DNA of 64,000 bases from positions 718,481 through 782,480 of the forward strand of contig OZ243946.1 in the NCBI GenBank assembly GCA_965214285.1, in the 5' to 3' direction. This document shows, piece by piece, positions 3,187-23,577 of this stretch. Made by a program: the position numbers and the translations under genes. Below the pieces are notes generated by a model. It was not told where the DNA came from, made no database searches, and saw only the letters and a list, made by a program, of their open reading frames with translations. The DNA is from Acidimicrobiales bacterium (lineage in GTDB: Bacteria; Actinomycetota; Acidimicrobiia; Acidimicrobiales; Aldehydirespiratoraceae). Position 1 is the stretch's first letter. Each line of letters opens with the position of its first letter.

Positions 3187-8663
<5,477 letters not shown>

Positions 8664-8667
<4 letters not shown>

Positions 8668-8717
8668 CCGACACGGCCACAGCAGCCCAAGACCAGGCCC
8701 ACGGGAACCCCCGTTGA
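8664..8717 (+). other. 17-codon uORF (MTDTATAAQDQAHGNPR) created by a 19-nt direct repeat; its TTG overlaps the stop of gene 1 (TTGA) and its stop overlaps the TTG of gene 2 (TTGA)
   Basis: ccgttgaccgacacggcca occurs at 8661-8679 and 8711-8729. The frames were checked by hand. Confidence 0.3.
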
Positions 8718-11620
8718 CCGACACGGCCATCCCCGGCACGGCGACCGCGGAGTTCGCGCCCGGAGCGCTCGTCGCCACGCGGGGCCGCGAGTGGGTGGTG
8801 CTGCCCGAGAGCGAGCCCGACCTGCTGATCCTGCGCCCGCTCGGCGGCGGAGAAGACGACACCGCCGCGGTGTTCTGGGCACTGGAGCCCGTCGAGCAGG
8901 CCAGCTTCGCCCCGCCCACCGCCGCCGATCTCGGCGACGCCACGAGCGCCGCGATGCTGCGCACCGCGCTGCGCCTCGGCTTTCGCTCCACGGCAGGCCC
9001 GTTCCGCTCCCTCGCAGGCCTCGCGGTAGAGCCCCGCGCCTACCAGTACGTGCCGCTGATGATGGCCCTCAAGCAAGACCCAGGACCCGTGCGCCTGCTC
9101 ATCGCAGACGACGTGGGCATCGGCAAGACCATCGAGGCGGGCCTGATCGTCAGCGAGTTGTTGGCCCAGGGCGACGCCTCCCGCCTCGCCGTGCTGTGCA
9201 GCCCTGCGCTGGCCGAGCAGTGGCAGGCCGAGCTGCGCGAGAAGTTCGCCATCGACGCCGAGCTCGTCCTTCCCTCCACGGTCACCCGGCTGACCCGCGG
9301 CCTGATGCTCAACGAGTCGCTGTTCGAGAAGCACCCATACGTGGTCGTCTCGACTGACTTCATCAAGCAGCACACCCGTCGCCAGGAGTTCTTGAACCAC
9401 TGCCCGGAGCTGGTGGTGGTCGACGAGGCCCACAGCGCAGTGTCGGACTCGGCCGCCGCCCGCTCCCGGACCCTGCGATACGAGCTGCTGAAGGGCGTAG
9501 CCGCCGACCCGACCCGCCATCTGCTGCTGGTCACGGCTACCCCGCACTCCGGCAAGGAGGAGGGCTTCCGCAACCTGATCGGCCTGCTCGACCCCGATCT
9601 GGCCACGGTCGACCTCGAGACCCAGCAGGGCCGGGCCGCACTGGCACGCCATTTCGTGCAGCGCCGGCGGGCCGACATCCGCCATTACCTCAACGAGGAC
9701 ACTTCCTTCCCCAGCGACCGCCACACCAAAGACGCCCCGTATGAGCTGAGCCCGCAGTACCGGGCGCTGTTCGACAAGGTGGTCGCCTACGCCCGCGAGC
9801 AGGTGGCCGACCCCGACTCGCCGACCGGCCAGGTCCGCCAGCGGGTGCGCTGGTGGTCGGCGCTGGCCCTGCTGCGATCGCTGGCGTCGTCGCCTCCGGC
9901 CGCCGCTGCGGCGCTGCGTACCCGTGCCCAGTCCGCCGACGCCCAGACCCTGGAGGAAGCCGACCGCCTGGGCCGCGAGACGGTGCTCGACACAGGCGTG
10001 GCCGAGGTGAGCGAGGCCTCCGACGTGGTAGCCGGCGCCGACGAGTCAGTAGACGGCGACGAGGGCGAGGCGTACCTGTCGCAGCGCCGCCGCCTGCTCG
10101 GGCTCGCAAGGCAGGCCGAGCAGCTCGCCGGCCCCGAGCGGGACCGCAAGCTCGCCGCCGTCACCGAAGAGGTTGAGGGCCTGCTGCACGACGGCTTCAA
10201 CCCGATCGTGTTCTGCCGTTTCATCCCGACCGCCGGCTACGTGGCCGACCAGCTCAGGGCTGCGCTCGGCCCCGGCGTGAGGGTTGCTGCCGTCACCGGC
10301 GAGCTGCCGCCCGCCGAGCGGATCGCCCGCATCGCCGATCTCACCAAGAAGGGCGGGGCCGGTCGCCACGTGCTCGTCGCCACTGACTGCCTGTCCGAGG
10401 GCGTCAACTTGCAGGAGCACTTCCAGGCTGTCGTGCACTACGACCTGGCCTGGAACCCGACCCGCCACGAGCAGCGCGAGGGCCGCGTCGACCGTTTCGG
10501 CCAGCGCCGCGACATCGTGCGAGCCACGACCCTGTACGGAATCGACAACCGGATCGACGGCATCGTGCTCGAGGTGCTGATCCGCAAGCACCGCGAGATC
10601 TCCAAGGCGACCGGCGTGGCCGTGCCGGTGCCGGACCGCAGCGACAGCGTGGTCGAGGCGCTGATGGAGGGCCTGATCCTGCGGGGCCGCCAGGACATCA
10701 GCCAGCTCGTGCTCGACCTCGACGACGACATGCAGGCCCAGCGCGACCGCCTGCACCGCGAATGGGAGAGTGCGGCTGAGCGGGAGCAGAAATCCCGCAC
10801 CAAGTTCGCCCAAGGGACCATCCATCCCGACGAGGTGCGAGTCGAGGTCGATGCGGCCCGAGCGGCGCTCGGGCGCCACAAGGACGTGGAGCACTTCGCA
10901 CGCGAGTCGCTGCGGGCGCTCGGCGCAAGCGTCACCTCCGACCGCAATGTCGACGGCTTCGTCGCTCGCACGGCCACCCTCCCGGTGGGGCTGCGTGACG
11001 CCCTGCCGACGGGGCGCCGCGAGCCGCTGCCGTTCCACCGCGACCTGCCGGTGCCGCGCCGCGAGGCGCTGCTGGCCCGCACCGCCCCGCACGTCGGCGC
11101 CGTCGCCCGTTTCGTGCTCGACGCCGCCCTCGACCCCTCGGCGCTTGCCCCCGGCGTCAACCGCCCGGCCAGCCGCGCAGGCGTGATGCGAACCGGCGCA
11201 GTCAGCACCCGGACCACGCTGCTGGTGCTGCGGCTGCGCTTCCATCTCGACCTCCCCGGCACGACCGGGCTGCGCAAGCTGGTCACCGAGGACGCCCTGA
11301 CCGTCGCCTTCGAGGGTTCCCCCGCCAGCGCCGCCTGGCTCGATGGCGATGCCACCGAAGCGCTCCTGGGCGCCGAGCCCGATGCCAACGTGCCCGCCGA
11401 TGCCGCAGCCCATGCCCTGCAGCGCATTCTCGACGGCCTGGGCGACCTCTCCGGGCACCTCGACCGGCTCGCCGACGACTCCGCCGATCAGCTCCTCGAA
11501 GCCCACCGCCGGGTGCGAACCGGCGGCGGCATCGCCAAGCGCGGCCTCAAGGTGGAGGCAGCCAAGCCCGTCGACGTGCTGGGCGTCTACGTGCTGCTCC
11601 CCACCGTCACAGCACCATGA
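8714..11620 (+). CDS. SNF2-family helicase (DISARM DrmD-like)
   Basis: DDVGIGKTIEAG Walker A, VVVDEAHS DEAH box and the C-terminal helicase motifs VLVATDCLSEGVNLQ and HYDLAWNPTRHEQREGRVDRFGQ. TTG start. Confidence 0.8.
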   Translation: MTDTAIPGTATAEFAPGALVATRGREWVVLPESEPDLLILRPLGGGEDDTAAVFWALEPVEQASFAPPTAADLGDATSAAMLRTALRLGFRSTAGPFRSLAGLAVEPRAYQYVPLMMALKQDPGPVRLLIADDVGIGKTIEAGLIVSELLAQGDASRLAVLCSPALAEQWQAELREKFAIDAELVLPSTVTRLTRGLMLNESLFEKHPYVVVSTDFIKQHTRRQEFLNHCPELVVVDEAHSAVSDSAAARSRTLRYELLKGVAADPTRHLLLVTATPHSGKEEGFRNLIGLLDPDLATVDLETQQGRAALARHFVQRRRADIRHYLNEDTSFPSDRHTKDAPYELSPQYRALFDKVVAYAREQVADPDSPTGQVRQRVRWWSALALLRSLASSPPAAAAALRTRAQSADAQTLEEADRLGRETVLDTGVAEVSEASDVVAGADESVDGDEGEAYLSQRRRLLGLARQAEQLAGPERDRKLAAVTEEVEGLLHDGFNPIVFCRFIPTAGYVADQLRAALGPGVRVAAVTGELPPAERIARIADLTKKGGAGRHVLVATDCLSEGVNLQEHFQAVVHYDLAWNPTRHEQREGRVDRFGQRRDIVRATTLYGIDNRIDGIVLEVLIRKHREISKATGVAVPVPDRSDSVVEALMEGLILRGRQDISQLVLDLDDDMQAQRDRLHREWESAAEREQKSRTKFAQGTIHPDEVRVEVDAARAALGRHKDVEHFARESLRALGASVTSDRNVDGFVARTATLPVGLRDALPTGRREPLPFHRDLPVPRREALLARTAPHVGAVARFVLDAALDPSALAPGVNRPASRAGVMRTGAVSTRTTLLVLRLRFHLDLPGTTGLRKLVTEDALTVAFEGSPASAAWLDGDATEALLGAEPDANVPADAAAHALQRILDGLGDLSGHLDRLADDSADQLLEAHRRVRTGGGIAKRGLKVEAAKPVDVLGVYVLLPTVTAP

Positions 11621-11687
11621 CCTCACTGCCGCAGCGCCATGACCCCCGCCATCAGCCCACAGCCATGAGCCCAGCCATGACCCTGCC

Positions 11688-14600
11688 ATGAGCCTCCGCG
11701 AGCAGCGCAGATCCGAGGCGCTCACGACCATCCGAGCCGTCGGCTCGGCGCTGCCCGCTGACGTGCTGAGCGCCGTGGTGTCCGGCGACGAGGGGCTCGA
11801 AGGGCTCAGCTCCGACGCCTACCGCCTGGAGATCGGCGTGACGCCCCGCGAGGCGGCCAACCGTGCCTGGAGCGTGCTGAGCGGCGCCTACGCCGGCTAC
11901 CGCAGAGCCCTCGCCGAGCGCCCCGACGGCGACCCGGCGGTCGGGCTGACCCGCGAGAGGTGGCTGGCCATCCTGTTGCGCGAGCTCGGCTTCGGCCGGG
12001 TGCCGACCACACCCGCCGGCGGCCTCAGCGCAGACGACCGCGGCTTTCCGATCTCACACGCCTGGGCTGCAGACGCCGTCCGCGTCACAGAGCCCGATGC
12101 CGTCCACGTGCCAGTGCATCTGCTCGGCTGGGGCGTCGAGCTCGACAAGCGCACGCCCGGCCAGGCGGGTGCTGCGGACCGTGCGCCGCACGCCATGGTG
12201 CAGGAATACCTCAACCGCAGCGACGCTGCGCTGTGGGGGCTGGTCGCCAACGGCCGCAAGCTGCGCCTGCTGCGTGACTCGTCGACCCTGATCGGCCAGA
12301 GCTTCGTGGAGTTCGACCTCGAGACCATGTTCGACGGCGCGGTGTTCTCGGAGTTCGTGGTGCTCTACCTGGTCTGCCACGCCACACGGTTCGAGACCAC
12401 GACCCCCGACGGCAGCGTCCCCGACGAGCCGACCGCAGCCGACTGCCGGCTGGAGCGCTGGCGCACCCACGCCGCCGAGACCGGCATCCGCGCCCTGACC
12501 GCCCTGCGCCCGGCGGTCGTCGAGGCCATCGAGGCGCTCGGCAGCGGCTTCGCCGGCCACCCCCGCAACGACCTGCACCGCCGCCTCGCCGCCCGCGAGA
12601 TCACGTCGCACGACTTGCACCAGGCTCTGCTGCGCCTGGTCTACCGGCTGCTGTTCTGCTTTGTAGCCGAGGATCGCGGCCTGCTTCTTCTTCTTGATCC
12701 CGATGCCGACCGCACCGCCCGTGAGCGCTACGCCGACTGGTTCTCCACCGCCCGGCTGCGCGGCATCAGCGAACGCCGCCGCGGAACAGCGGGCCACAGC
12801 GACCTCTGGCGGGCTCTGAGTGTGGTCTTCGAAGGCCTCGGCCTAGAAGGTGGTCGCCCCGAGCTGGCCCTGCCCGGCCTGGGCGGCATCTTCGAGCTCG
12901 GCGCGTCCGACGTGATCGCAGACATGGAGCTCCCCAACTCGGCCCTGCTCAAGGCGATCCGCTGTCTCACCGTGGTGCAGCCCGCAGGCGGCGGGCCGAA
13001 GCGGCGGGTCGACTACCGCAATCTCGGCGCCGAGGAGCTGGGCAGCGTGTACGAGTCGCTGTTGGAGTTCGAGCCCCGTTACGACGAGTCCCGCCGGGCC
13101 TTCTCGCTGGAGACGGTGGCGGGCAACGAGCGCAAGACCTCCGGCTCCTACTACACCCCGGCGTCGTTGATCGACTGCCTGCTCGACTCGGCCCTCGACC
13201 CGCTGCTCGACGACGCCGAGAAGGCCGACAACCCCGAGCAGGCGCTGCTGCGGATGACCGTCTGCGATCCGGCCTGCGGCTCGGGGCACTTCCTGGTTGC
13301 CGCCGCCAAGAGGATTGCCGCCCGTCTTGCCTCCGTGCGCGCCCGGGCCGAGGATGCCGAGGAGCCGACCCTGCTGCATGAGCAGGCGGCGCTGCACGAG
13401 GTGGTCGACCGCTGTATCTACGGCGTGGACCTAAACCCGATGGCCGCCGAGCTGGCCAAGGTCAGCCTCTGGCTGGAGAGCGTGCAGCCCGGCCGGGCGC
13501 TCAGTTTCCTCGATGCCCACATCAAGGTCGGCAACGCCCTGCTCGGCGCCACGCCCGCGCTGCTTGCCGAGGGCATCCCCGACGCTGCCTTCAAGGCGCT
13601 CGACGGCGACGACAAGAAATGGACGGCGTCGCTGCGCAAGCGCAATCGCCGGGCGCGCGAGATTGTCCAGGGCCAACTGTTCGATGCTGACGTGCTGGGG
13701 GTGTTCGACGCCGGCCTGCGCTCCCGAGCCGCCGAGATCGATCAACTGCCCACCGTCTCGCTGGCCGACGTGCACCTGGCAGCCCGCCGTCATCGTGAGT
13801 TCGAGCACTCGCCGGGCCTGCGCCGAGATCGGCTGGTCGCCGACGCCTGGTGTGCCGCCTTCATGGCCATCAAGACCCCGGACCGCCCTGCGATCACAAC
13901 CGCGACCCTGCGCCGCCTGGCCGAGGACCCAGAGGCCGCCTTCTCGCCCAACGCCTCAACCGCAGCGACCCAGCAGGCGGCGCTGCCCAGCCTCGCCGAC
14001 GCCCCGGAGCCGGTCTCGCCGGAGGGCTCTGTCGCCTCTGTGAATGGGGGGGGGGTCCCTGGCCGCCGAGGAAGCCGCAACGGTGCGCCAGATCAGCGAC
14101 GAGTACAAGTTCTTCCACTGGCACCTCGAGTTCCCGCAGATCTTCCGCACCGGCGGAGATGCCTCGGCGACCGACGGGCCGGGCTGGGACGGCGGCTTCT
14201 CCTGCGTGCTCGGCAATCCTCCGTGGGAGCGGGTCAAGCTGCAGGAGAAGGAGTTCTTCGCCGCATCCGATCCGGACATCATTGAGGCGCAGAACAAAGC
14301 AGTCCGCGAACGGCTGATCAGGACGCTGCCCGAGCGGAAGCCGCAACTGTTCGACGATTTCGTTGCGGCGAAGCGCCGATCCGACACTGTTAGTCATTTT
14401 CTCCATCAGACAGGTCGATATCCTCTCTGTGGCCGCGGTGACATCAACACCTACTCTGTATTCACTGAACACGGTCGCACCACCCTGGCAACGACCGGAA
14501 GGCTCGGCGTTATCGTTCCGACCGGCATTGCGACCGACAAGACGACGAGGCACTTCTTCAAGGATCTTGTCCAGAGGGCGTCGTTGGTGTCGCTCTACGA

Positions 14601-15882
14601 CTTCGAGAACCGCCGACATCTCTTCGATGCGGTAGATAGCCGGTTCAAGTTCTGCCTGTTGACCGTCGCCGGCAGGGACGAGCTTGTCTCACAGGCCGAC
14701 TTCGCTTTCTTCCAACTCGATCCCGACGACCTGGCTCGCGAAGGCACTCGTTTCGAGCTCACTCCCGATGAGATTCGCATCCTCAACCCCAACACCGGCA
14801 CCTGCCCCGTCTTCTCCAGCCGCCGGGTTGCCGAGATCACGATCGAAGTCTATCGCCGCCACCCCGTCCTCGTCAATGAGAACCTGCCTGAAGACGAGGG
14901 CAATCCATGGGGTTTATCGTTCACCACCATGTTCCACATGTCCGGCGATTCTCATCTCTTTGAGACACGAGAACACTTGGAATCCGATGGCTGGCTCCTC
15001 GAAGGCAACGTCTTCACCCGGGGCACAGATCAAATGCTCCCGCTATATCAAGGCATGATGCTGACCTTTGATGACTATCGGGCAGCCTCGATCGTCAGAA
15101 GCCCGACAGCGACGACACGCCAGAACCAGCCCAGCTACCTGACCGATGCCGAGAAGGACGATCCTGGCTGTGCAGCTCTGCCTGCGTATTGGGTTGGGGC
15201 TGCGGAAGTTGATGATCGATTGAGCCTCGACAAACCGATGCCCTGGTTGATGGGAATGTCGGACATCACTAGCGCGACAAACATGAGGTCTGCCGTACCT
15301 TGCATCTTCCCGCGAGCGGGTGTCGGACACAGCACGTCGCTTGCATTCTCGCGGCAGTCTCCTGTCGACCTGTACTGCATCCTCTCGTGCCTTGCCTTCG
15401 ACTTCCTGGTCCGTCAGAAGCTCGGTGGACTGCACATGTCCTACTACATCGTTGAACAGCTCGCAGCGCCGATCCCAGCCGACTTCGCCAGACCCTGCCT
15501 CTGGATCTCACACAGCACCACTAGTGAATGGGTCGCCCCTCGAATCGCGGAGCTGATCTACACCTCGCATGCCATGAGCGCCTTCGCCGACGAGCTCGGC
15601 TACGGCGGCGAGCCGTTCCGATGGCACGTCCCGCGGCGCAAACAGCTCCGCGCTGAGATTGACGCTGCAATGTTCCACATCTACGGCCTCAACCGCGCCG
15701 ACACCGAGTACGTGCTCGGCACCTTCCCCATCGCCAACGAGAAGGACCCCGACCTCACCCCGCGAATCCTGCGCGAGTACGACGCCATGCAGCAGGCGAT
15801 TGACACCGGCGTCGCCTATGCAAGCCCCCTCGACCCCCCGCCCGGCCACGGCCCCCGCCACCCACCCCGTCCAACCCCCTGA
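11688..15882 (+). CDS. N6-adenine DNA methyltransferase, gamma-class Type IIG/Eco57I-like (DrmMI/PglX-like), ~1,398 aa. It is interrupted by a +1/-2 frameshift at a poly-G tract (frame 0 ORF 11688..14285, frame 1 ORF 14044..15882).
   Basis: Motif I MTVCDPACGSGHFLV (~13270) lies in the upstream frame. Motif IV GNPPWERV (~14212) and FHWHLEFPQIF lie in the downstream frame. The frames switch exactly at G10 (14046-14055). Confidence 0.8.
14046..14055 (+). repeat. Homopolymeric G tract (~10 G) inside the methyltransferase ORF; candidate slipped-strand phase-variation switch (a 1-nt contraction restores the full-length ORF)
   Basis: The ORF-track translations on both sides imply a G10 run. Frame arithmetic (the downstream protein continues at tcc 14056 in frame 1) supports it. 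Confidence 0.7.
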
Positions 15883-15899
15883 CCCAATCCAGAAGAGGA

Positions 15900-16589
15900 G
15901 TGCGCTGTGCCCGAGTTCAGCGAGAACGTGGCGTGGTGAGCGACCAGTCCCGCCCCTCGCCGAGCCTGCTTCGGCGGCTGCCGCGCCCCAGCCTGGACTG
16001 GCTGTGGTTTGTGCTCAGCGGAGCTGTCATGGTCGGCTTCGTGGTGTCGCTCTGGAAACCGCTACTCCTGCTGCTTGGTGTCCTAGCATTCGGGTTCGTG
16101 GTCCTGGCGGTTCTCGTGGCGATTCTCGAAGCGCTGTACAAGTGGGCCGACAGGGCGCTAGGAGCGCTGTATAGGTGGGCCGACAAGAGGTGGGGCCACA
16201 ATGGCGCTGACGGATCCTCAGACGAGGAGATGGTGCTGAGGGAGGAGGCCTGGGATTGGTGGGCAAAGGTCGATGACCTGCTGACCTACGCCAACCCGAT
16301 GCGAAGCCTGCGTGATGCTGAGTCCACGCAGGAGAACCGGGAGTGTCTTCATCGATGGAACCAGACGCTGCGTTCTCTCAAAGCTGACGTTTACGGCATC
16401 CGAAAACGAACAGTTGACATGCAGGAGCAGCATGGGGAGGACGCCCTGGTAGAGACCTGGGCCACGGTGGTGGTGGCGCTCGACTGCCTGGATGCCGAGG
16501 TCGCCTCCGCCGGATACCTGCTGGACGAATGGGATTCCTGGGAACGCCTGGCCAAGCTGGCGGAGGGATGGGAGCAGGGCTACCCCTAA
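15900..16589 (+). CDS. Hypothetical membrane protein (two predicted N-terminal TM helices, internal repeat YKWADRALGALYRWADKRWG) in a lower-GC segment
   Basis: Hydrophobic segments WLWFVLSGAVMVGFVVSLW and LLLLLGVLAFGFVVLAVLVAIL. No recognisable domain. Start uncertain. Confidence 0.4.
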   Translation: MRCARVQRERGVVSDQSRPSPSLLRRLPRPSLDWLWFVLSGAVMVGFVVSLWKPLLLLLGVLAFGFVVLAVLVAILEALYKWADRALGALYRWADKRWGHNGADGSSDEEMVLREEAWDWWAKVDDLLTYANPMRSLRDAESTQENRECLHRWNQTLRSLKADVYGIRKRTVDMQEQHGEDALVETWATVVVALDCLDAEVASAGYLLDEWDSWERLAKLAEGWEQGYP

Positions 16590-16686
16590 TCGCCGGGCTT
16601 GTCGCTATCGAGTCTCGGACCGGGCTCGCCGCGAAGCCGGCGCTTGCTCGCGGTGCGAATTCTTGATGGAGCGCCGATGGTCGGGG

Positions 16687-17091
16687 TCAGTGCCCGAAAT
16701 CGAGCCGTTCGCGCAGCCAGGCCGCCATCCAGGCCTCGTCTGCTGTGCCAGCGGCCAGCGCCACCATCGCCTGTTCCGCTGCATCCGCGTCGGGCACGGC
16801 AGGGGTCCATGTTCCGCCGTTGATCTTTGCGAACCTTCGCAGCGACATCCATGCCGAGCGCTTGTTGCCGTCGGGCAGAGGGTGGTTCTGCACCAGCCGG
16901 CAGCAGAGCACCGCCGCCTTGTCGATCAGGCTGGGGTAGAAGTCCTCGTCGCCGAACCCGGCTTGCGGAGCGTGCAGGGCACTGTCGGCGAGGCCGATAC
17001 GGTCGGACTTCTTCAGCACCTCCGAGCTGATCCCGGTGACCTGCTCGGCGAACTCCAGGTACGTGAGAAGGTCCAGGTACTTGACGCTCAC
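16687..17091 (-). CDS. Doc-family (Fic/Doc fold) toxin
   Basis: NHPLPDGNKRSAWMSL matches the Doc HxFxDGNKR motif. Probable GTG start overlapping the antitoxin stop (GTGA). Confidence 0.7.
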   Translation of the reverse strand: MSVKYLDLLTYLEFAEQVTGISSEVLKKSDRIGLADSALHAPQAGFGDEDFYPSLIDKAAVLCCRLVQNHPLPDGNKRSAWMSLRRFAKINGGTWTPAVPDADAAEQAMVALAAGTADEAWMAAWLRERLDFGH

Positions 17092-17246
17092 TGGCCTGCG
17101 AGCCGGTCGAGGAGCTCCTTGTCCTCCTCCATCGTCTGCTTGATCCACTCCTGTAGTTCCTTGTCCGCACGGACGCGGGCCATGCCCTCCTCGAAGGTCT
17201 CGTTCGGCTTGGCCTTGGCGGGGCTCGGCGTGGTGGTGTCGGTCAT
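17088..17246 (-). CDS. Small antitoxin partner of Doc (52 aa, MTDTTTPSPAKAKPNETFEEGMARVRADKELQEWIKQTMEEDKELLDRLAGQ)
   Basis: Hand-translated minus-strand ORF immediately upstream of Doc with a 4-nt overlap. It is absent from the ORF track because it is shorter than 60 aa. Confidence 0.5.
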   Translation of the reverse strand: MTDTTTPSPAKAKPNETFEEGMARVRADKELQEWIKQTMEEDKELLDRLAGQ

Positions 17247-17380
17247 CCGTCTCTCCGTCTCTCGCGCTATCTCAGTGGGTGCAGCCTACGGCATCTCTGG
17301 CCCCAGAGTAGCCGCTGTCGCCCAGTCCGCCACGGGAACGATCCACCGACATCCCCGGCGGGCGGATCGGCGGCTGACGG

Positions 17381-18490
17381 TCAGCGGACTGTGCGGCCAA
17401 AGACACCCGAAAAGCCGGCAGTGTCTAACGCGACGATGCCGAAAGTCCCCGGAGGGAGTGTCACCGTCGGCAGTTCCCGGCGCCACCTATCCAGGCGGTC
17501 CGAGTTCTCCCGCATGAACCGGGCTTCGTGCTCCAGCCGAACCTCGGAGCGGACCCGTTCCAGAGGCGCCTTGCAGGCGAAGTCCGCGGTGGCGATCTCC
17601 ACCTCCAAGGCCATAAGGGCGTCGATCTCGGCCTGCAGGGCGTCGTCGATGCGGTTGGGGCCTCCCGCAGCATTGACACGGGGCATCAGGGTGACGAAGA
17701 CGTCGTTGAGAGAGGCGTAGATGGCGTCCTCGTCGGCGTAGCGATGCCCGCGCTCTGCCATGCAGGATGACCACTCGGCGGCGGCCGCAGCGATGCGAGG
17801 ATCGGCGGCGATCTGCTCGTCGAGCGATGCGGTGATCTCGTTGAACGCCATAACAGCTGCCGCGGGAGGCGACAACTTGTCCAGCGCCTCCTGGTAGCAC
17901 AGGTTGAATTGCTCTTGCCATGCCCTGCGCTCGGTCTCGGAGAGACCTTCCCGAAAGGCATCGTTGGGGTCGGGAGAATAGACCCCAGTAGGCCCGAGGG
18001 GCGTCATGAGGGCGTCAGCCATCCCGTAGCCCATCTCCGGTCCGGGCTCTTCGCCCGGCTCGAGCAGATCTGGTTGCGCGGCTCGGCTAGCGGCCTCTTC
18101 TGCAAGCCAGTCGCGCACGACGTACCGCAGCCCCTGCCTGGCCATGCAGCTGCGGATCACCTGGTCTTGGGCGACCATCGGATGCGCCGTGACGAGATCG
18201 GGGAACGTCTCGAAGATGTGGCTCCTCATGAACTCGCCCAACCCGGTCGGGGATCGCTCATCGGATGCGTTCTCGTCAGCAGAACCGCCGTCGGCTGGGC
18301 TCGCAGCCGAAGACGCGCTGTCGTCCGAGGCGGCTTGCTCAGAGTCCGCGGCCCCGGCGGCCTGTTCGCCGGGCGCGCTGCTCCCGTCCTGCGAATACGA
18401 GCCTGTGCCCGAGTCCGAGCAGCCCGCGGCCAGCACCGTGACCACCGCTGCGGCAGTCAGCCAAAGCGCACAACGGATGCGATGCACCAT
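17381..18490 (-). CDS. Secreted lipoprotein, paralog 1 of 3 (signal peptide with lipobox LAAGC)
   Basis: MVHRIRCALWLTAAAVVTVLAAGCSD, an acidic low-complexity N-terminal region, and a C-terminal half paralogous to 18777..19880 and 20707..21804. Confidence 0.6.
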   Translation of the reverse strand: MVHRIRCALWLTAAAVVTVLAAGCSDSGTGSYSQDGSSAPGEQAAGAADSEQAASDDSASSAASPADGGSADENASDERSPTGLGEFMRSHIFETFPDLVTAHPMVAQDQVIRSCMARQGLRYVVRDWLAEEAASRAAQPDLLEPGEEPGPEMGYGMADALMTPLGPTGVYSPDPNDAFREGLSETERRAWQEQFNLCYQEALDKLSPPAAAVMAFNEITASLDEQIAADPRIAAAAAEWSSCMAERGHRYADEDAIYASLNDVFVTLMPRVNAAGGPNRIDDALQAEIDALMALEVEIATADFACKAPLERVRSEVRLEHEARFMRENSDRLDRWRRELPTVTLPPGTFGIVALDTAGFSGVFGRTVR

Positions 18491-18583
18491 CAGTCTGGAC
18501 CTGCTCCTCGGTCGGGGGAGGGGATTGCACGGCCATTGTCGCAGACTCCGCGCCGCCGCGCAATGGATTCGCCGGCGGGGGTC

Positions 18584-18770
18584 AGACGGAGACGGCGATC
18601 TCGACGGGGTGGTGGCAGGCGACCCAGTGATCGCCGTCGCCGACCTGGGTCATCACAGGCTCCTCGCTGCTGCAGCGATCGCTGGCATGCCCGCAGCGGG
18701 TGTGGAACCGACAGCCCCCCGGCGGGCGGATCGCGGACGGCAGCTCGTCTGGGATGCCGGAATCGGGGGT
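18584..18770 (-). repeat. Duplicated 3'-terminal fragment of oppF/dppF (~185 nt), copy 1
   Basis: Encodes ELPSAIRPPGGCRFHTRCGHASDRCSSEEPVMTQVGDGDHWVACHHPVEIAVSV, nearly identical to the C-terminus of CDS 22474..23577. Confidence 0.75.
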
Positions 18771-18776
18771 CCCGTT

Positions 18777-19880
18777 TCAGAAGATGAAGCTCCCGGGTGG
18801 CATGGTCATAGTGGGGGCTTCTTGGCGCAGCAGGGCCAGGCGGTCTTGGTTGTCGTCGAGGAACTGTTGCTCGTGTTCGACCTTGACTTCGTAGCGGACC
18901 TGTTGCAGGGTTTCCTCGCAGGCGAGGTCGGCCACGGCGATCTCGGCTTCGATGGCCTGCAGGGCGTCGAGGTCGGCCTGGAAGGCGGCGTCGATGTGCT
19001 CGTGGCCACCCAGGGCCCGCAGCCGGTTGAGCAGCGGATTGGCGATGCCGTTCAGGTAGGCGTGGATTTCGTCCTGGTCCGAGAAGCTGTGCCCGCGCTC
19101 TGCCATGCACGCCGACCACTCGGCGGTGGCCTCAGCGATCCGCGGGTCGGCGTCGACACGCTCTTGCAAGGCGGCGAGTTCGTCTTCCAGCGCCAGGTAG
19201 ATCACCCCTGGGCGGCTGATCTCGGTTTGGGCGTGATGGACGCATTCCCGGCGATGGCTTTCCCATGCCTCGAACTCGCTTTGGGACATGCTGTCGCGGA
19301 TGGCGTCGTTGGGATCCACGTAGCCGTGCTCGAACACCTCGGGCGCGTCGATGCTGTCGGCGTAGCCGTAGCCGTGCGTCGACATGTAGTCCTCTTCGTC
19401 AACGGCGGGCGTGACAGCGGCCCGCGCTGCGCTCTTGGCGGCCCAGTCGATCATGGCGTAGCGGAAACCCTGTTGGGTCATGCAGTCGTATTTCATCTGC
19501 TCGATGGCAGCCATCGGATCGGAGAAGTCGTGATCGGGAAACGCTTCAGTCCTGAGATCGGCCAGAAACGCCCCAAGCGGCGACCACAGCTGCTCGTCGG
19601 CACCATCCTCAGCGGAGCCGTCGCTGGCCTCTTCGTCCGGGTCGCTCTCGTCTGAGCCGCCGTCTCCTTCGCCAGACGGGTCCTCCGCTGAGACCGAGCT
19701 CTCAGCCGGTTCGGCCTCAGCACCGCCCTGGGCGTTCTCCGAGGCGGCCTCAGCACTCAGTTCAGCGGACACGCCCTCCACAGTCTGGGATTCCGAGCCC
19801 GTTTCCGAGCAGCCCGCGGCCAGCACGACGGCCACCACTGCGGCAGTCAGGCACAGCACACAGCGGATTCGATGCACCAT
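18777..19880 (-). CDS. Secreted lipoprotein, paralog 2 of 3
   Basis: MVHRIRCVLCLTAAVVAVVLAAGCSE. Start chosen at the signal-peptide Met; the track ORF is extended to 20036. Confidence 0.6.
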   Translation of the reverse strand: MVHRIRCVLCLTAAVVAVVLAAGCSETGSESQTVEGVSAELSAEAASENAQGGAEAEPAESSVSAEDPSGEGDGGSDESDPDEEASDGSAEDGADEQLWSPLGAFLADLRTEAFPDHDFSDPMAAIEQMKYDCMTQQGFRYAMIDWAAKSAARAAVTPAVDEEDYMSTHGYGYADSIDAPEVFEHGYVDPNDAIRDSMSQSEFEAWESHRRECVHHAQTEISRPGVIYLALEDELAALQERVDADPRIAEATAEWSACMAERGHSFSDQDEIHAYLNGIANPLLNRLRALGGHEHIDAAFQADLDALQAIEAEIAVADLACEETLQQVRYEVKVEHEQQFLDDNQDRLALLRQEAPTMTMPPGSFIF

Positions 19881-19912
19881 CGGATTGGGGCCGCCGCTCC
19901 TGTCAGCGGCGC

Positions 19913-20323
19913 TCAGTACCCGGTGATTTCGACCCAGATCTCGGTGTCGCCTGGGAATCTGGTGCGGTTGACGCGCACCCATGCCTGCGAGTCTCCTGTC
20001 TGATCGAAGAACAGGTGATTCGTCCAGCGCCTGCACGACCAGGCCTGGACGAAGTCCCTGCCGCCGTCCTCGTACACGGCAGTCACGCAGCTACCGTCCG
20101 TATGCACGTCGCGGACCTTGGCAGCGATGATGCCATCACCGTCATAGGTCGAGGGGTCCCGGATCTCCCATTTCCCCCAAGGGGTGTACTCCCACCTTCC
20201 GGCGACAAATACCTCGAAACCTTGGCTGAAGTCGCGCACTTGGGCTGCGTGGGCGGGCAGAGCGGTGGCGATCATCAGCGACAACGCTGCGATCACTCCG
20301 ATCAGGCTTCGGGTGGTCTTCAT
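19913..20323 (-). CDS. Small secreted protein (136 aa, Sec signal peptide, 2 Cys), paralog A
   Basis: MKTTRSLIGVIAALSLMIATALPAHA signal peptide. Paralogous to 21837..22247. Confidence 0.6.
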   Translation of the reverse strand: MKTTRSLIGVIAALSLMIATALPAHAAQVRDFSQGFEVFVAGRWEYTPWGKWEIRDPSTYDGDGIIAAKVRDVHTDGSCVTAVYEDGGRDFVQAWSCRRWTNHLFFDQTGDSQAWVRVNRTRFPGDTEIWVEITGY

Positions 20324-20518
20324 GGCTGGCTCCCTTCAGGGGCGTCAAGCTTGCACGGCCATTATGGCACACAGCGCGGAGTTCTGCATGGGGTCTGCGA
20401 CGCCAATCGCTAGGCCCTCGCTCAGGCCGGAGGGAGGGGTAGGACGGGCGGCTGCCCAGCACGTCTGATGCCGGACGAGGGGCGTCGGGAAGAGCACCCC
20501 CGGGTTGTCGAGGGCGTC

Positions 20519-20700
20519 AGACGGCGATCTCGACGGGGTGGTGGCAGGCGACCCAGTGGTCGCCGTCGCCCACCTGGGCTATCAGCGGCTCCTCGCTGCG
20601 GCAGCGGTCGCTGGCATGCCCGCAGCGGGTGTGGAACCGACAGCCCCCCGGCGGGCGGATCGCAGACGGCAGCTCGCCTGCGATGTCGGAGTCGGAGACT
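20519..20700 (-). repeat. Duplicated 3'-terminal fragment of oppF/dppF, copy 2
   Basis: Same C-terminal peptide as 18584-18770 and 22476-22665. Confidence 0.75.
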
Positions 20701-20706
20701 CTCGCT

Positions 20707-21804
20707 TCAGCAACACGAAAAGTGTCCGGGTGGCATGGTCATCGTGGGCAGTTCCTCGCGCAGCAGGGCCAGGCGGTCCTGGTTCTCGTCGACGAATCGC
20801 TGCTCGTGCTCGAATCGAACCTCTTCACGGACCTGTTGCAGGGGTCCCTCGCAGGCGAGGTCGGCTACGGCGATCTCGACCTCGATGGCCTGCAGAGCGT
20901 CGAGGTTGGCCTGGAAGGCGGCGTCGATGTGCTCGTGGCCGCCCAAGGCCCGCAGCCGGTTGAGCAGCGGATCGGCAATGCCGCTCAGGTAGGAGTGGAT
21001 CTCGTCCTGGTCGGCGAAGCTGTGCCCGCGCTCTGCCATGCACGCCGACCACGCGGCGGTGGCCTCAGCGATCCGCGGGTCGGCATCGACACGCTCCTGC
21101 AAGGCGGTGAGTTCGTCTTGCAATGCCAGGTAGATCACCCCTGGGCGGCTGATCTCGGTCTGAGCATGATGGACGCAGTCGCGCCGATGGCTCTCCCAGG
21201 CTTCGAACTCGCTTGCGGACATGGTTTCTCGGATCGCGTCGTTGGGATCCACGTAGCCGTGCTCAAACACCTCCGGCGCGTCGATGCTGTCGGCGAAGCC
21301 GTAGCCGTGCGTCGACATGTAGTCCTCTTCGTCAACGCTGGGCATGACAGCGGCCCGCGCTGCGCTCTTGGCGGCCCAGTCGATCATGGCGTAGCGGAAA
21401 CCCTGCTCGGTCATGCAGTCGTACTTCATCTGCTCGATGGCAGCCATCGGATCGGAGAAGTCGTGATCGGGAAACGCCTCAGCCCTGAGATCGGCCAGAA
21501 ACGCCCCAAGCGGCGACCCATGCTCCTCGGCGGGAACGTCCTCCGCGGAGCCGTCGTCGCCCGATTCGCTCTCGTCTGAGTCGCTGCCTTCGTCGCCCGG
21601 CGGATCCTTTGCTGAGACCGGGCTCTCATCTGGCTCGTCCTCAACCACGCCCTGGGCATCCTCCGAGGCGGCCTCTGCACCCAGTTCAGCGGGCACCACC
21701 TCCGCAGTCTGGGACTCCGAGCCCGTGTCCGAGCACCCCGCGGCCAGCACCGCGACCTCCACCGCCGCAGTCAGCCACAACGCCCAGCGGATTCGACCTG
21801 CCAT
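20707..21804 (-). CDS. Secreted lipoprotein, paralog 3 of 3
   Basis: MAGRIRWALWLTAAVEVAVLAAGCSD. Start chosen at the signal-peptide Met. Confidence 0.6.
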   Translation of the reverse strand: MAGRIRWALWLTAAVEVAVLAAGCSDTGSESQTAEVVPAELGAEAASEDAQGVVEDEPDESPVSAKDPPGDEGSDSDESESGDDGSAEDVPAEEHGSPLGAFLADLRAEAFPDHDFSDPMAAIEQMKYDCMTEQGFRYAMIDWAAKSAARAAVMPSVDEEDYMSTHGYGFADSIDAPEVFEHGYVDPNDAIRETMSASEFEAWESHRRDCVHHAQTEISRPGVIYLALQDELTALQERVDADPRIAEATAAWSACMAERGHSFADQDEIHSYLSGIADPLLNRLRALGGHEHIDAAFQANLDALQAIEVEIAVADLACEGPLQQVREEVRFEHEQRFVDENQDRLALLREELPTMTMPPGHFSCC

Positions 21805-21836
21805 CGGATCGGGGTCGCCGCTCCTGTCAGCGGCGT

Positions 21837-22247
21837 TCAGTACCCGGTGATCTCCCACCAGATCGCGGGGTCGTCTGGGAATCTGGTGCGGTTGACGCGT
21901 ACCCATGCCTGCGAGTCTCCTGTCTGGTCGAAGAACAGGTGATTCGTCCAGTGCCGACACGACCTGGCCTGGACGTAGTCCCGCTTGCCGTCTTCGTACA
22001 CGGCCGTAACGCAGCTCTTGTCGGTGTGCACGTCGCGGACCTTGGCGGCGATGATGCCATCACCGTCATAGGTCGAGCGGTACCGGATCGACCACAGCCC
22101 CCAGGGGATCTCCTTGAGCTTTCCGTCGACCACTACGATCAGGCTTTGGTCGAAGTTAATCACCTGGCCTGCGTTGGCGGGCAATGCCGTGGCGATCACC
22201 AGCGACAACGCTGCGATCACGCCGGTCAGGCTGCGGATGGTCTTCAT
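21837..22247 (-). CDS. Small secreted protein (136 aa), paralog B
   Basis: MKTIRSLTGVIAALSLVIATALPANA. 60-70% identical to 19913..20323. Confidence 0.6.
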   Translation of the reverse strand: MKTIRSLTGVIAALSLVIATALPANAGQVINFDQSLIVVVDGKLKEIPWGLWSIRYRSTYDGDGIIAAKVRDVHTDKSCVTAVYEDGKRDYVQARSCRHWTNHLFFDQTGDSQAWVRVNRTRFPDDPAIWWEITGY

Positions 22248-22473
22248 GGCTGGCTCCTTTCAGGGGCCTCAAGCTTGCACGGCCATTATGGCACACCGCG
22301 CGGAGCTGTGCATGGGTTTCGGCCGGGCGGTCGGTGGGTCCCGGTCAGGCGGGAGTAGGGGGGATGGGATCGTGCCTCTGCCCAGCTCAGCTCCCCGGTG
22401 CCGAGGGGCGTCGGTGTGAGCCTGTCCCCGGTGCTGCGGGGTGGCAGGCGAGCGCGGCCGGTGCGGAGGGCGG

Positions 22474-23577
22474 TCAGACGGAGACGGCCACCTCGACCGG
22501 GTGGTGGCAGGCGACCCAGTGGTCGCCGTCGCCGACCTGGGTCATCACAGGCTCCTCGCTGCTGCAGCGGTCGCTGGCATGCCCGCAGCGGGTGTGGAAC
22601 CGACAGCCCCCCGGCGGGCGGATCGCGGACGGCAGCTCGCCGGCGATGTCGGACTCCGATGGGTCCACCGTCGGAGCAGGCTCGGGGATCGAGGCCAGCA
22701 GCGCCCGCGTGTAGGGATGCCGGGGCTGCTCATAGAGCGCATCGGCGTTGCCGACCTCGCACACCTTGCCCAGATACATCACCACGATCCGGTCGCTCAC
22801 GTTCTTCACCACCGACAGGTCGTGGCTGATGAACATCAGGGTCAGCCCGTAGCGGCGCTTCATGTCCTGGAGCAGGTTGAGGATCTGCGCCTGCACCGAC
22901 ACGTCCAGCGCCGACACAGGCTCGTCGCAGATCAGCAGCTTCGGGTCCAGCGCCAGCGCCCGAGCCACACCGATCCGCTGGCACTGGCCGCCGCTGAACT
23001 GATGCGGCCGCCGGTCGCCGATCTTGGGGTCGATTCCGACGCTCTCCATCAGCTCGTCGATGCTGTCGTCGGACCACGAGCCCCGCTCGTCGCCCCACAC
23101 GCAGAGCCCCTCGGCGATCACGTCCCGGATCCGCCGGCGGGGATTCAGCGAGGAGATCGGGTCCTGGAAGATCATCTGCAGGTCGGGGCGGACCGCCCTC
23201 AGCGCCTCGCCCTCCAGCGCCGCCAGGTCGTTGCCCCGGTACTCGATGGCGCCGCTCTTGGCGTCGTTGAGCCGGATGATCGTCTTGGCGACGGTGGACT
23301 TGCCGCAGCCCGACTCGCCGACGATGCCCAGCGTCTCGCCCTCCACGATGTCGAAGCTCACGCCGCTGACCGCATGCACCACCTCGCCGCGCCCGGCGGC
23401 GAACTCCACGGTCAGGTTGCGGACGCTGAGCAGCACGCCGGGCTCGTCGCGCAGCGTGGAATCGGCGGGGCCTGCGCCCGGCGCAGAGGCCGTCTGCGAG
23501 GAGCCCCGCCGCCTGCGGAGGATGACGACGACCGCCACGGCCGCCACGATCACAGCCAGGATCAGCACGGCGCTCAT
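22474..23577 (-). CDS. Oligopeptide/dipeptide ABC transporter ATP-binding protein (OppF/DppF-like)
   Basis: Walker A GESGCGKST, signature SGGQCQRIGVARAL and the C-terminal oligo_HPY region. Confidence 0.85.
   Translation of the reverse strand: MSAVLILAVIVAAVAVVVILRRRRGSSQTASAPGAGPADSTLRDEPGVLLSVRNLTVEFAAGRGEVVHAVSGVSFDIVEGETLGIVGESGCGKSTVAKTIIRLNDAKSGAIEYRGNDLAALEGEALRAVRPDLQMIFQDPISSLNPRRRIRDVIAEGLCVWGDERGSWSDDSIDELMESVGIDPKIGDRRPHQFSGGQCQRIGVARALALDPKLLICDEPVSALDVSVQAQILNLLQDMKRRYGLTLMFISHDLSVVKNVSDRIVVMYLGKVCEVGNADALYEQPRHPYTRALLASIPEPAPTVDPSESDIAGELPSAIRPPGGCRFHTRCGHASDRCSSEEPVMTQVGDGDHWVACHHPVEVAVSV

Follow-up and report, generated by a model that had tools for sequence, protein, structure and literature searches.

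A poly-G tract as a candidate slippage switch in armB, the methyltransferase gene of a predicted ARMADA type I cassette from an Acidimicrobiales bacterium

Repeats within open reading frames (ORFs) act as reversible ON/OFF switches in the type III mod genes of 'phasevarions' and in the type I hsdM and hsdS genes of Haemophilus, Neisseria and Helicobacter, where loss of the methyltransferase disables restriction too. In the Pgl system (BREX type 2) of Streptomyces coelicolor, the poly-G tract in pglX has eight G's in the ON state and seven in the OFF state (PMC4365076 for the tract length), and switching occurs at frequencies of 1e-2 to 1e-4. ARMADA stands for DISARM-related antiviral defence array; its type I systems, which are abundant in Actinomycetota, consist in order of a YprA homologue, a BrxHII-like helicase and a PglX-like methyltransferase; the YprA homologues of ARMADA are closest to those of Druantia, and a Vsr-type nuclease has been assigned to the C-terminus of the helicase (bioRxiv 10.1101/2025.09.15.676423). 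The locus considered here is a cassette of this predicted type in a 64,000-nt stretch (the window) of contig OZ243946.1 from an Acidimicrobiales bacterium, in which the methyltransferase gene, armB, is split between two reading frames by a run of ten G's (G10). This tract is a candidate slippage switch.

The frame change is located in GTGAATGGGGGGGGGGTCCCTGG, the letters at 14040-14062, which include exactly ten consecutive G's (Table 1). Upstream of the tract, in frame 0, the native part of armB encodes the N-terminal domain, the S-adenosylmethionine (SAM)-binding motif I and a helical insertion, after which the ORF continues into an out-of-frame tail of 76 residues and a stop. The 865-residue product is protein cluster P0014, on a contig of 3,222,374 bp. 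As assembled, therefore, G10 truncates ArmB after residue 789, ahead of the NPPW motif and the variable C-terminal module. The remainder of the gene lies in frame +1 as a stop-free ORF of 612 codons that encodes both FHWHLEFPQIF and NPPW and keeps every family-invariant residue, the invariant columns of the armB family alignment extending to R1390. Tract lengths of G6, G9 and G12 are in frame, whereas G10 is not, and deletion of a single G yields one ORF of 1397 aa plus stop, with motif I upstream of the repaired site and NPPW downstream. A gamma-class N6-adenine methyltransferase has motif I and motif IV in one polypeptide; in the assembled sequence the two are on separate ORFs, and removal of one G unites them. 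When the repaired protein was placed on the window by tblastn, residues 1-789 corresponded to 11688-14054 and residues 787-1388 to 14047-15852, so that the frame change sits inside the tract and nowhere else. A preliminary description of this DNA had reported a G run of about ten nt lying between motif I and motif IV, a frame-0 part that holds motif I and ends at a stop, a downstream part in frame 1, and a single ORF of some 1,398 aa upon contraction by 1 nt; this anatomy is borne out, and the precedent that it cited, G-tract phase variation of pglX, is likewise correct.

Table 1. Positions of the frameshift site, of armB and its partner genes in the window, and of the repeats at the second armB junction in three related loci (for the latter, positions are those of each locus).
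Feature	Position	Strand	Remarks
G10 homopolymer, frameshift site	14046-14055	+	only homopolymer of at least 7 nt in the 64-kb window
Hypervariable, indel-rich linker hosting the tract	13923-14097	+	between conserved blocks …ITxATLxRL… and …YKFFHWHLEFPQIF (alignment)
armB 5' ORF, frame 0	11688-14285	+	865 aa; residues 1-789 native
armB 3' ORF, frame +1	14044-15882	+	612 aa; motif IV, variable C-terminal module, conserved tail
Motif I CDPACGSGHF, SAM binding	13263-13292	+	C526-F535 invariant; Pfam N6_Mtase/MmeI_Mtase over residues 474-600
Motif IV NPPW, catalytic	14215-14226	+	N843-W846 invariant; Pfam Eco57I over residues 800-855; downstream of the frameshift
Variable C-terminal module, putative target-recognition domain, lower GC	14926-15639	+	from protein identity between the window and L001
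armC, YprA/DruE-like DEAD-box helicase with MZB (DUF1998) domain	3187-8667	+	1826 residues; ORF intact
armA, SNF2/RapA-like (BrxHII/DrmD-like) helicase	8714-11620	+	968 residues; ORF intact; 87% identical to the L001 orthologue
L007 (Marihabitans), repeat	G8 at 12162-12169		in frame; stand-alone second-module gene 13310-14356
L029 (Brooklawnia), repeat	G8 at 11067-11074		out of frame; stand-alone second-module gene 11788-12636
L065 (Mycobacterium sp. ST-F2), repeat	(GA)15 at 12124-12153		out of frame; stand-alone second-module gene 12803-13636

The system to which the split gene belongs was defined from its partners. ArmC matches Pfam DEAD (7.7e-25), Helicase_C and, at 31.7 bits against a cut-off of 24.2, MZB, with about 700 residues separating the DEAD and Helicase_C matches; it also matches PADLOC DruE (1e-90) and PDB entry 9tu7 (2.7e-46), and is 84% identical to its orthologue in the closest relative, locus L001, whose ArmB is 74% identical to that of the window. 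Its C-terminal 186 residues give sub-threshold matches to REase_MTES_1575 (E 2.6e-4; 21.4 bits, cut-off 38.2) and DUF559 (E 0.049), and a PDB sequence search returned no match to a Vsr nuclease domain in this region. ArmA has the Pfam domains SNF2-rel_dom, Helicase_C and ResIII and is most like DrmD/DpdE, although it scores 288 bits with the NCBIfam DrmD model, under the cut-off of 610. The best PADLOC match of repaired ArmB (11688-15882) is DrmMI (1.9e-64), followed by type IIG enzymes. The order armC, armA, armB, with both helicases directly upstream of the methyltransferase, recurs in 81 of 86 related loci. A YprA-family DExH helicase with DUF1998/MZB thus comes first, followed by an SNF2 helicase and a PglX-like methyltransferase, and because this gene content and order match the published description, the split gene is, on sequence grounds, armB, which comes third in an ARMADA type I cassette, and not pglX of a BREX system. 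ARMADA type II has a fourth gene, armD, which the window and its relatives lack.

The Pgl/BREX frame in which the preliminary description had set the locus was consequently abandoned. The neighbours of the methyltransferase gene are two helicases, with no PglW, PglY or PglZ here, and the NCBIfam BREX PglX models score 24-42 bits on P0001, the 74%-identical orthologue, against cut-offs of 400-900. As for the intact helicase and nuclease partners of that description, the helicases are indeed intact, whereas the nuclease amounts to a Vsr-like domain, weakly detected, in a C-terminal fusion with one of them, ArmC. Class 1 DISARM (DrmD, DrmMI, DrmA, DrmB, DrmC) likewise combines an SNF2 helicase, a large adenine methyltransferase and a DUF1998-associated helicase, but its DrmA and DrmB are separate proteins in place of the one fused DruE-like protein found here, and its gene order differs. 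It was rejected on the fusion of helicase and MZB and on the low DrmD score. No PLD domain (DrmC) was present in the cassette or the neighbours examined, and the curated NCBIfam cut-offs for DISARM, Dpd and BREX were reached by none of the proteins scanned, the methyltransferase being represented by P0001.

At the codons homologous to the tract, L001 reads AAT GGG GGG TCC CTG GCC GCC, an in-frame G6, and the window has the same flanks, with AAT before the ten G's and TCC CTG GCC GCC after them. In the protein alignment, NGGGSLAAEE at the repaired junction corresponds to NGGSLAAKE of the orthologue. Other relatives encode Gly-Gly at this site as GGC GGC, GGC GGT or GGA GGG. Such interrupted glycine codons, together with the G6 of L001, indicate that a pure G run arose in the lineage of the window and L001 and then gained four bases in the window. 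On the way from G6 to G10 in steps of one base, the tract would be out of frame at G7 and G8 and in frame at G9. Tract length thus differs between the 74%-identical orthologues; a conspecific sequence was not found. The linker of the window's armB also has an extra insertion of about 25 residues. The best 120 protein homologues are full length, at 1296-1387 residues, except for the 865-residue fragment of the window itself and one match of 1047 residues that covers 78% of the query. With the 3' part and the partner genes intact, the lesion may be of very recent date, reversible or artefactual; the sequence alone fits all three.

Natural frameshifts of a related kind are found at the other junction of ArmB, where the variable C-terminal module begins. 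In this module the window and L001 are 37-52% identical, as against 70-93% in the rest of the protein; it has probably been swapped as a target-recognition module, and the two systems therefore likely recognise different sites. A drop in GC content near 14 kb was considered as a recombination breakpoint at the tract and was rejected, as the same 3' drop occurs in L001, L002 and other relatives and corresponds to the C-terminal module. Three armB genes of about 50% identity have a simple repeat between NGNVFER and MLPLYEAKM, at the start of the module (Table 1), and in two of these, L029 and L065, the body ORF stops 2-6 codons past the repeat. The contig names of all three loci (k141_…, '(paired)_contig') suggest short-read assemblies, so that the out-of-frame states of L029 and L065 are probably real. 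A stand-alone gene encoding a second C-terminal module, which starts at an ATG of its own and is 45-47% identical to the module fused to the body, lies just downstream of armB in precisely these three loci and in none of the remaining 83. As assembled, these loci show that repeat-mediated frameshifts occur in natural armB genes, and the three, which are related, might use the repeat to choose between a fused and a trans-encoded module. A wider proposal, which we regard as doubtful, is that ArmB of ARMADA type I repeatedly evolves repeat switches at inter-domain linkers: one kind, between motifs I and IV, would turn the enzyme on and off, and the other, at the C-terminal junction, would alternate between a fusion with module A and a shortened body partnered in trans by module B, thereby changing target specificity.

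On balance, the evidence tips toward a genuine slippage-prone poly-G switch in armB, present as assembled in its OFF allele. This reading draws on the position of the frame change exactly in the tract, on the exact repair, on the lack of any other lesion and on the intact armC and armA, and further on the armB repeats at a domain junction in other genera and on the G8 precedent of pglX. As in contingency loci, an in-ORF repeat sets the frame, and G10 is longer than the proven G8 of pglX. The sequence shows that the tract lies in a hypervariable linker in which additional glycines are tolerated, that tract lengths in multiples of three give full-length ArmB and that G10 gives the truncated form. 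Loss of ArmB would turn off the whole defence and leave the cell alive, by analogy with ARMADA type II. Replication slippage of -1 or +2 bases would then restore armB, at a frequency likely to be about 1e-2 to 1e-4, as for the shorter tract of Streptomyces pglX, and a population would be a mixture of defended and undefended cells. We infer both that most cells truly have the OFF allele and that selection acts on switching.

The known systems bear on this proposal to different degrees. Pgl resembles the present locus in its actinobacterial host, in a large PglX-type N6-adenine methyltransferase that is part of a multi-gene phage defence, and in a coding poly-G tract in which a one-base change inactivates the enzyme; it differs in having a tract of 8 nt as opposed to 10 nt, and in that switching has been measured there, whereas we infer it here. 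The methyltransferases of phasevarions belong to classical restriction-modification systems of low-GC pathogens and are polymorphic in tract length among strains, whereas here there is a single genome, of a high-GC environmental actinobacterium. In actinobacteria, as studied in mycobacteria, NucS mismatch repair does not correct indels, and phase variation at homopolymer tracts is documented in Mycobacterium tuberculosis (PMC10334774). There, too, the host is an actinobacterium and homopolymer indels arise at elevated rates as reversible adaptive switches, but the targets are metabolic and drug-tolerance genes and not, as here, a defence methyltransferase.

The OFF state would most likely be one of lost defence and not of toxicity. 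In ARMADA type II, deletion of any gene, armB included, abolishes protection, as does the NPPW mutation N971A (bioRxiv 10.1101/2025.09.15.676423). An armB deletion was moreover made in the native enterohaemorrhagic Escherichia coli host with the helicases intact, and growth was possible (bioRxiv 10.1101/2025.09.15.676423; PMC13463889). Class 1 DISARM without its methylases causes no autoimmunity. Since the G10 product lacks NPPW, the type II results point to loss of defence rather than to self-restriction. Thus, where the preliminary description had expected an OFF methyltransferase beside intact partners to be "toxic or inactive", the viability of the type II armB deletion, the N971A mutant and the behaviour of DISARM favour inactivity and not toxicity. 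PglX is toxic without PglZ, and we know of no similar relationship in ARMADA.

Several observations weigh against a switch at this site. A single reading frame crosses the tract linker in all 86 related armB genes, and in 70 loci the linker is 51-132 aa long and includes no homopolymer longer than 6 nt; the tract is thus lineage-specific and not a conserved switch. The 865-aa protein is the only member of its 90%-identity cluster and occurs in one assembly only, and a metagenome scan for tract-length variants with the pattern AATGGGGGGN{0,8}TCCCTGGCCGCC gave five matches, all of them unrelated chance occurrences with no armB homology. Across the 86 loci, armB makes up 20% of the bases and has 6 of the 55 repeats of at least 7 nt, which is no enrichment over the flanking DNA. 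Dinucleotide-preserving shuffles of the window, which is 70% GC, lead to an expectation of about 2 matches to G9. The effects of ArmB loss are extrapolated from type II, the experimentally tested type. Finally, the source is a single 3.22-Mb contig, and the nearest relatives are on contigs of 3.15 and 5.08 Mb named ctg150421c and ctg4868_12.40x_c, in the style of long-read metagenome assemblers and in one case at about 12x coverage; in assemblies of that kind, errors typically persist at homopolymers of ten bases.

The significance of the tract depends on the null model. G/C runs of 3, 4, 5 and 6 nt number 1796, 401, 87 and 12 in the window, there are none of 7-9 nt, and there is one of 10 nt. 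Only three G/C runs of at least 9 nt occur in 1.39 Mb of related high-GC loci, two of which are a paired G11 and C10 just 3' of the armB stop of L016. GGG accounts for 13% of the glycine codons in the window's genes, so that three successive GGG codons are unexpected. The empirical run-length spectrum was preferred over a composition-only null for judging the tract, and against this background it is a clear outlier, which it is not against the dinucleotide shuffles. The two alternatives that the preliminary description had offered, phase variation and homopolymer error, both hold up; the in-frame G6 of L001 and the repeats at the other armB junction in three genera have strengthened the former, but a general enrichment of repeats in armB did not emerge. 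In L016 (Actinomadura physcomitrii) the G11 (13111-13121) and the C10 (13144-13153) are 22 nt apart, beside a run of N, and the pair may be a hairpin or an assembly-gap artefact.

The strongest alternative, a serious one although less probable than the switch, is a homopolymer error in the assembly, whereby the true tract would be G9 (or G12 if under-called), armB would be intact and the frameshift would be an artefact of long-read consensus; even then the tract would be prone to slippage. In addition to the provenance of the contigs, a single-base lesion at the only long homopolymer of the window, in a gene that is otherwise intact and has two intact partners, and whose 86 relatives are in frame at the site, is what such an error would look like. 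Against it, none of the other genes among about 50 in the window is split, a weak test given that the window offers no second long homopolymer for comparison, and the out-of-frame armB repeats of L029 and L065 come from short-read-style assemblies, which implies that real OFF alleles exist in the family.

It is less probable still that the lesion is real but non-adaptive. In that case drift would have lengthened the run in a linker that tolerates it, slippage would have inactivated armB and the cassette would be decaying, with armB a pseudogene. The restriction of the tract to one lineage, other relatives having at most 6 nt here, and the lack of general repeat enrichment in armB agree with such a course, as does the location of the cassette in a lower-GC stretch with a Doc-like toxin ORF and tandem duplications, which is consistent with rapid gene turnover. 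However, a second lesion is absent from armB, armA and armC, and domain-junction repeats are found in three other genera of the same family. Furthermore, G10 reverts easily, such that 'dead' and 'switchable' alleles would differ only by selection on switching.

Very improbable is continued expression of the G10 allele, in which slippage by RNA polymerase or the ribosome would supply some full-length ArmB, or the fragments would assemble with the product of a 3' ORF begun at ATG 14044: ATG GGG GGG GGG TCC does open the 3' ORF right at the tract, a homopolymer permits perfect tRNA re-pairing after a +1 shift and the small ORFs chained by ATGA between armA and armB suggest that translation may be coupled in this operon, but the nearest GGAGG is about 17 nt upstream of this ATG, too far for a typical Shine-Dalgarno sequence, the upstream frame runs on for 240 nt past it, making stop-start coupling unlikely, its out-of-frame presence in L001 also marks it as incidental, and 0 of the 86 relatives are naturally split at the site.

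The surroundings of the cassette have further repeats and variable neighbours. At the armA-armB junction (11615-11695), an 11-12-nt unit that includes CCATGA is repeated in tandem about five times, and the mini-ORF of 24 codons that results (11617-11691) shares an ATGA with the armA stop on one side and with the armB start on the other; in L001, armA and armB share one ATGA directly. Near the 3' end of armC, at 8605-8654, a (GGCCAG)x8 repeat encodes a GQ/DQ-rich tail in frame, and as its unit is a hexanucleotide, a change in length leaves the reading frame unshifted. Just upstream of armC, the gene at 1075-2514 encodes a protein with Schlafen AlbA_2 and HATPase_c_4 domains and is flanked, at 908-981 and 2515-2624, by low-GC 11-mer direct repeats (GCTACTCTAAC and variants) that may be regulator binding sites. 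Downstream of armB, on the minus strand, an ORF of 153 residues (16687-17148) has the HPLPDGNKR motif typical of Fic/Doc toxins, and L001 has a weak Fic match just downstream of its armB. There follow, again on the minus strand and within 17381-22700, three tandem paralogues (17381-18490, 18777-20036 and 20707-21960) with a period of about 1.93 kb and 65-88% DNA identity, for which no match was found in Pfam, NCBIfam or PADLOC; the one whose sequence was inspected, 17381-18490, has a hydrophobic, signal-peptide-like N-terminus. The Doc-like ORF and the paralogues stand in place of the defence-island genes found downstream of armB in L002, L088, L090 and L091, namely McrBC-like GTPase/nuclease pairs, DarT with Macro, or PLD with an extra SNF2. 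Another relative, L070 (Plantactinospora sonchi), has two full-length armB homologues on the same strand (5239-9219 and 13492-17469), about 4 kb apart. The window's genes mark the host as an actinobacterium: they include an S-(hydroxymethyl)mycothiol dehydrogenase (mycothiol-dependent formaldehyde dehydrogenase; 660 bits, cut-off 513) and F420-dependent enzymes, and a search of a plasmid database found nothing similar to the window.

ARMADA was described only in 2025-2026, and to our knowledge nothing has been published on its regulation or on its cost to the cell. Phase variation, frameshifts and homopolymers are not mentioned in its descriptions (bioRxiv 10.1101/2025.09.15.676423; PMC13463889). 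When a defence methyltransferase is found frameshifted in a metagenome-assembled genome from long reads, the reads should be consulted before the gene is labelled a pseudogene or 'corrected' in polishing. Phase variation of defence methyltransferases through repeats is already established, and its occurrence in ARMADA would be new. If the switch in armB is genuine, alleles with G9 and G10 would provide a natural genetic handle on whether methylation by ArmB marks self DNA, and actinobacteria would hedge ARMADA at the level of the population, as Streptomyces does with Pgl.

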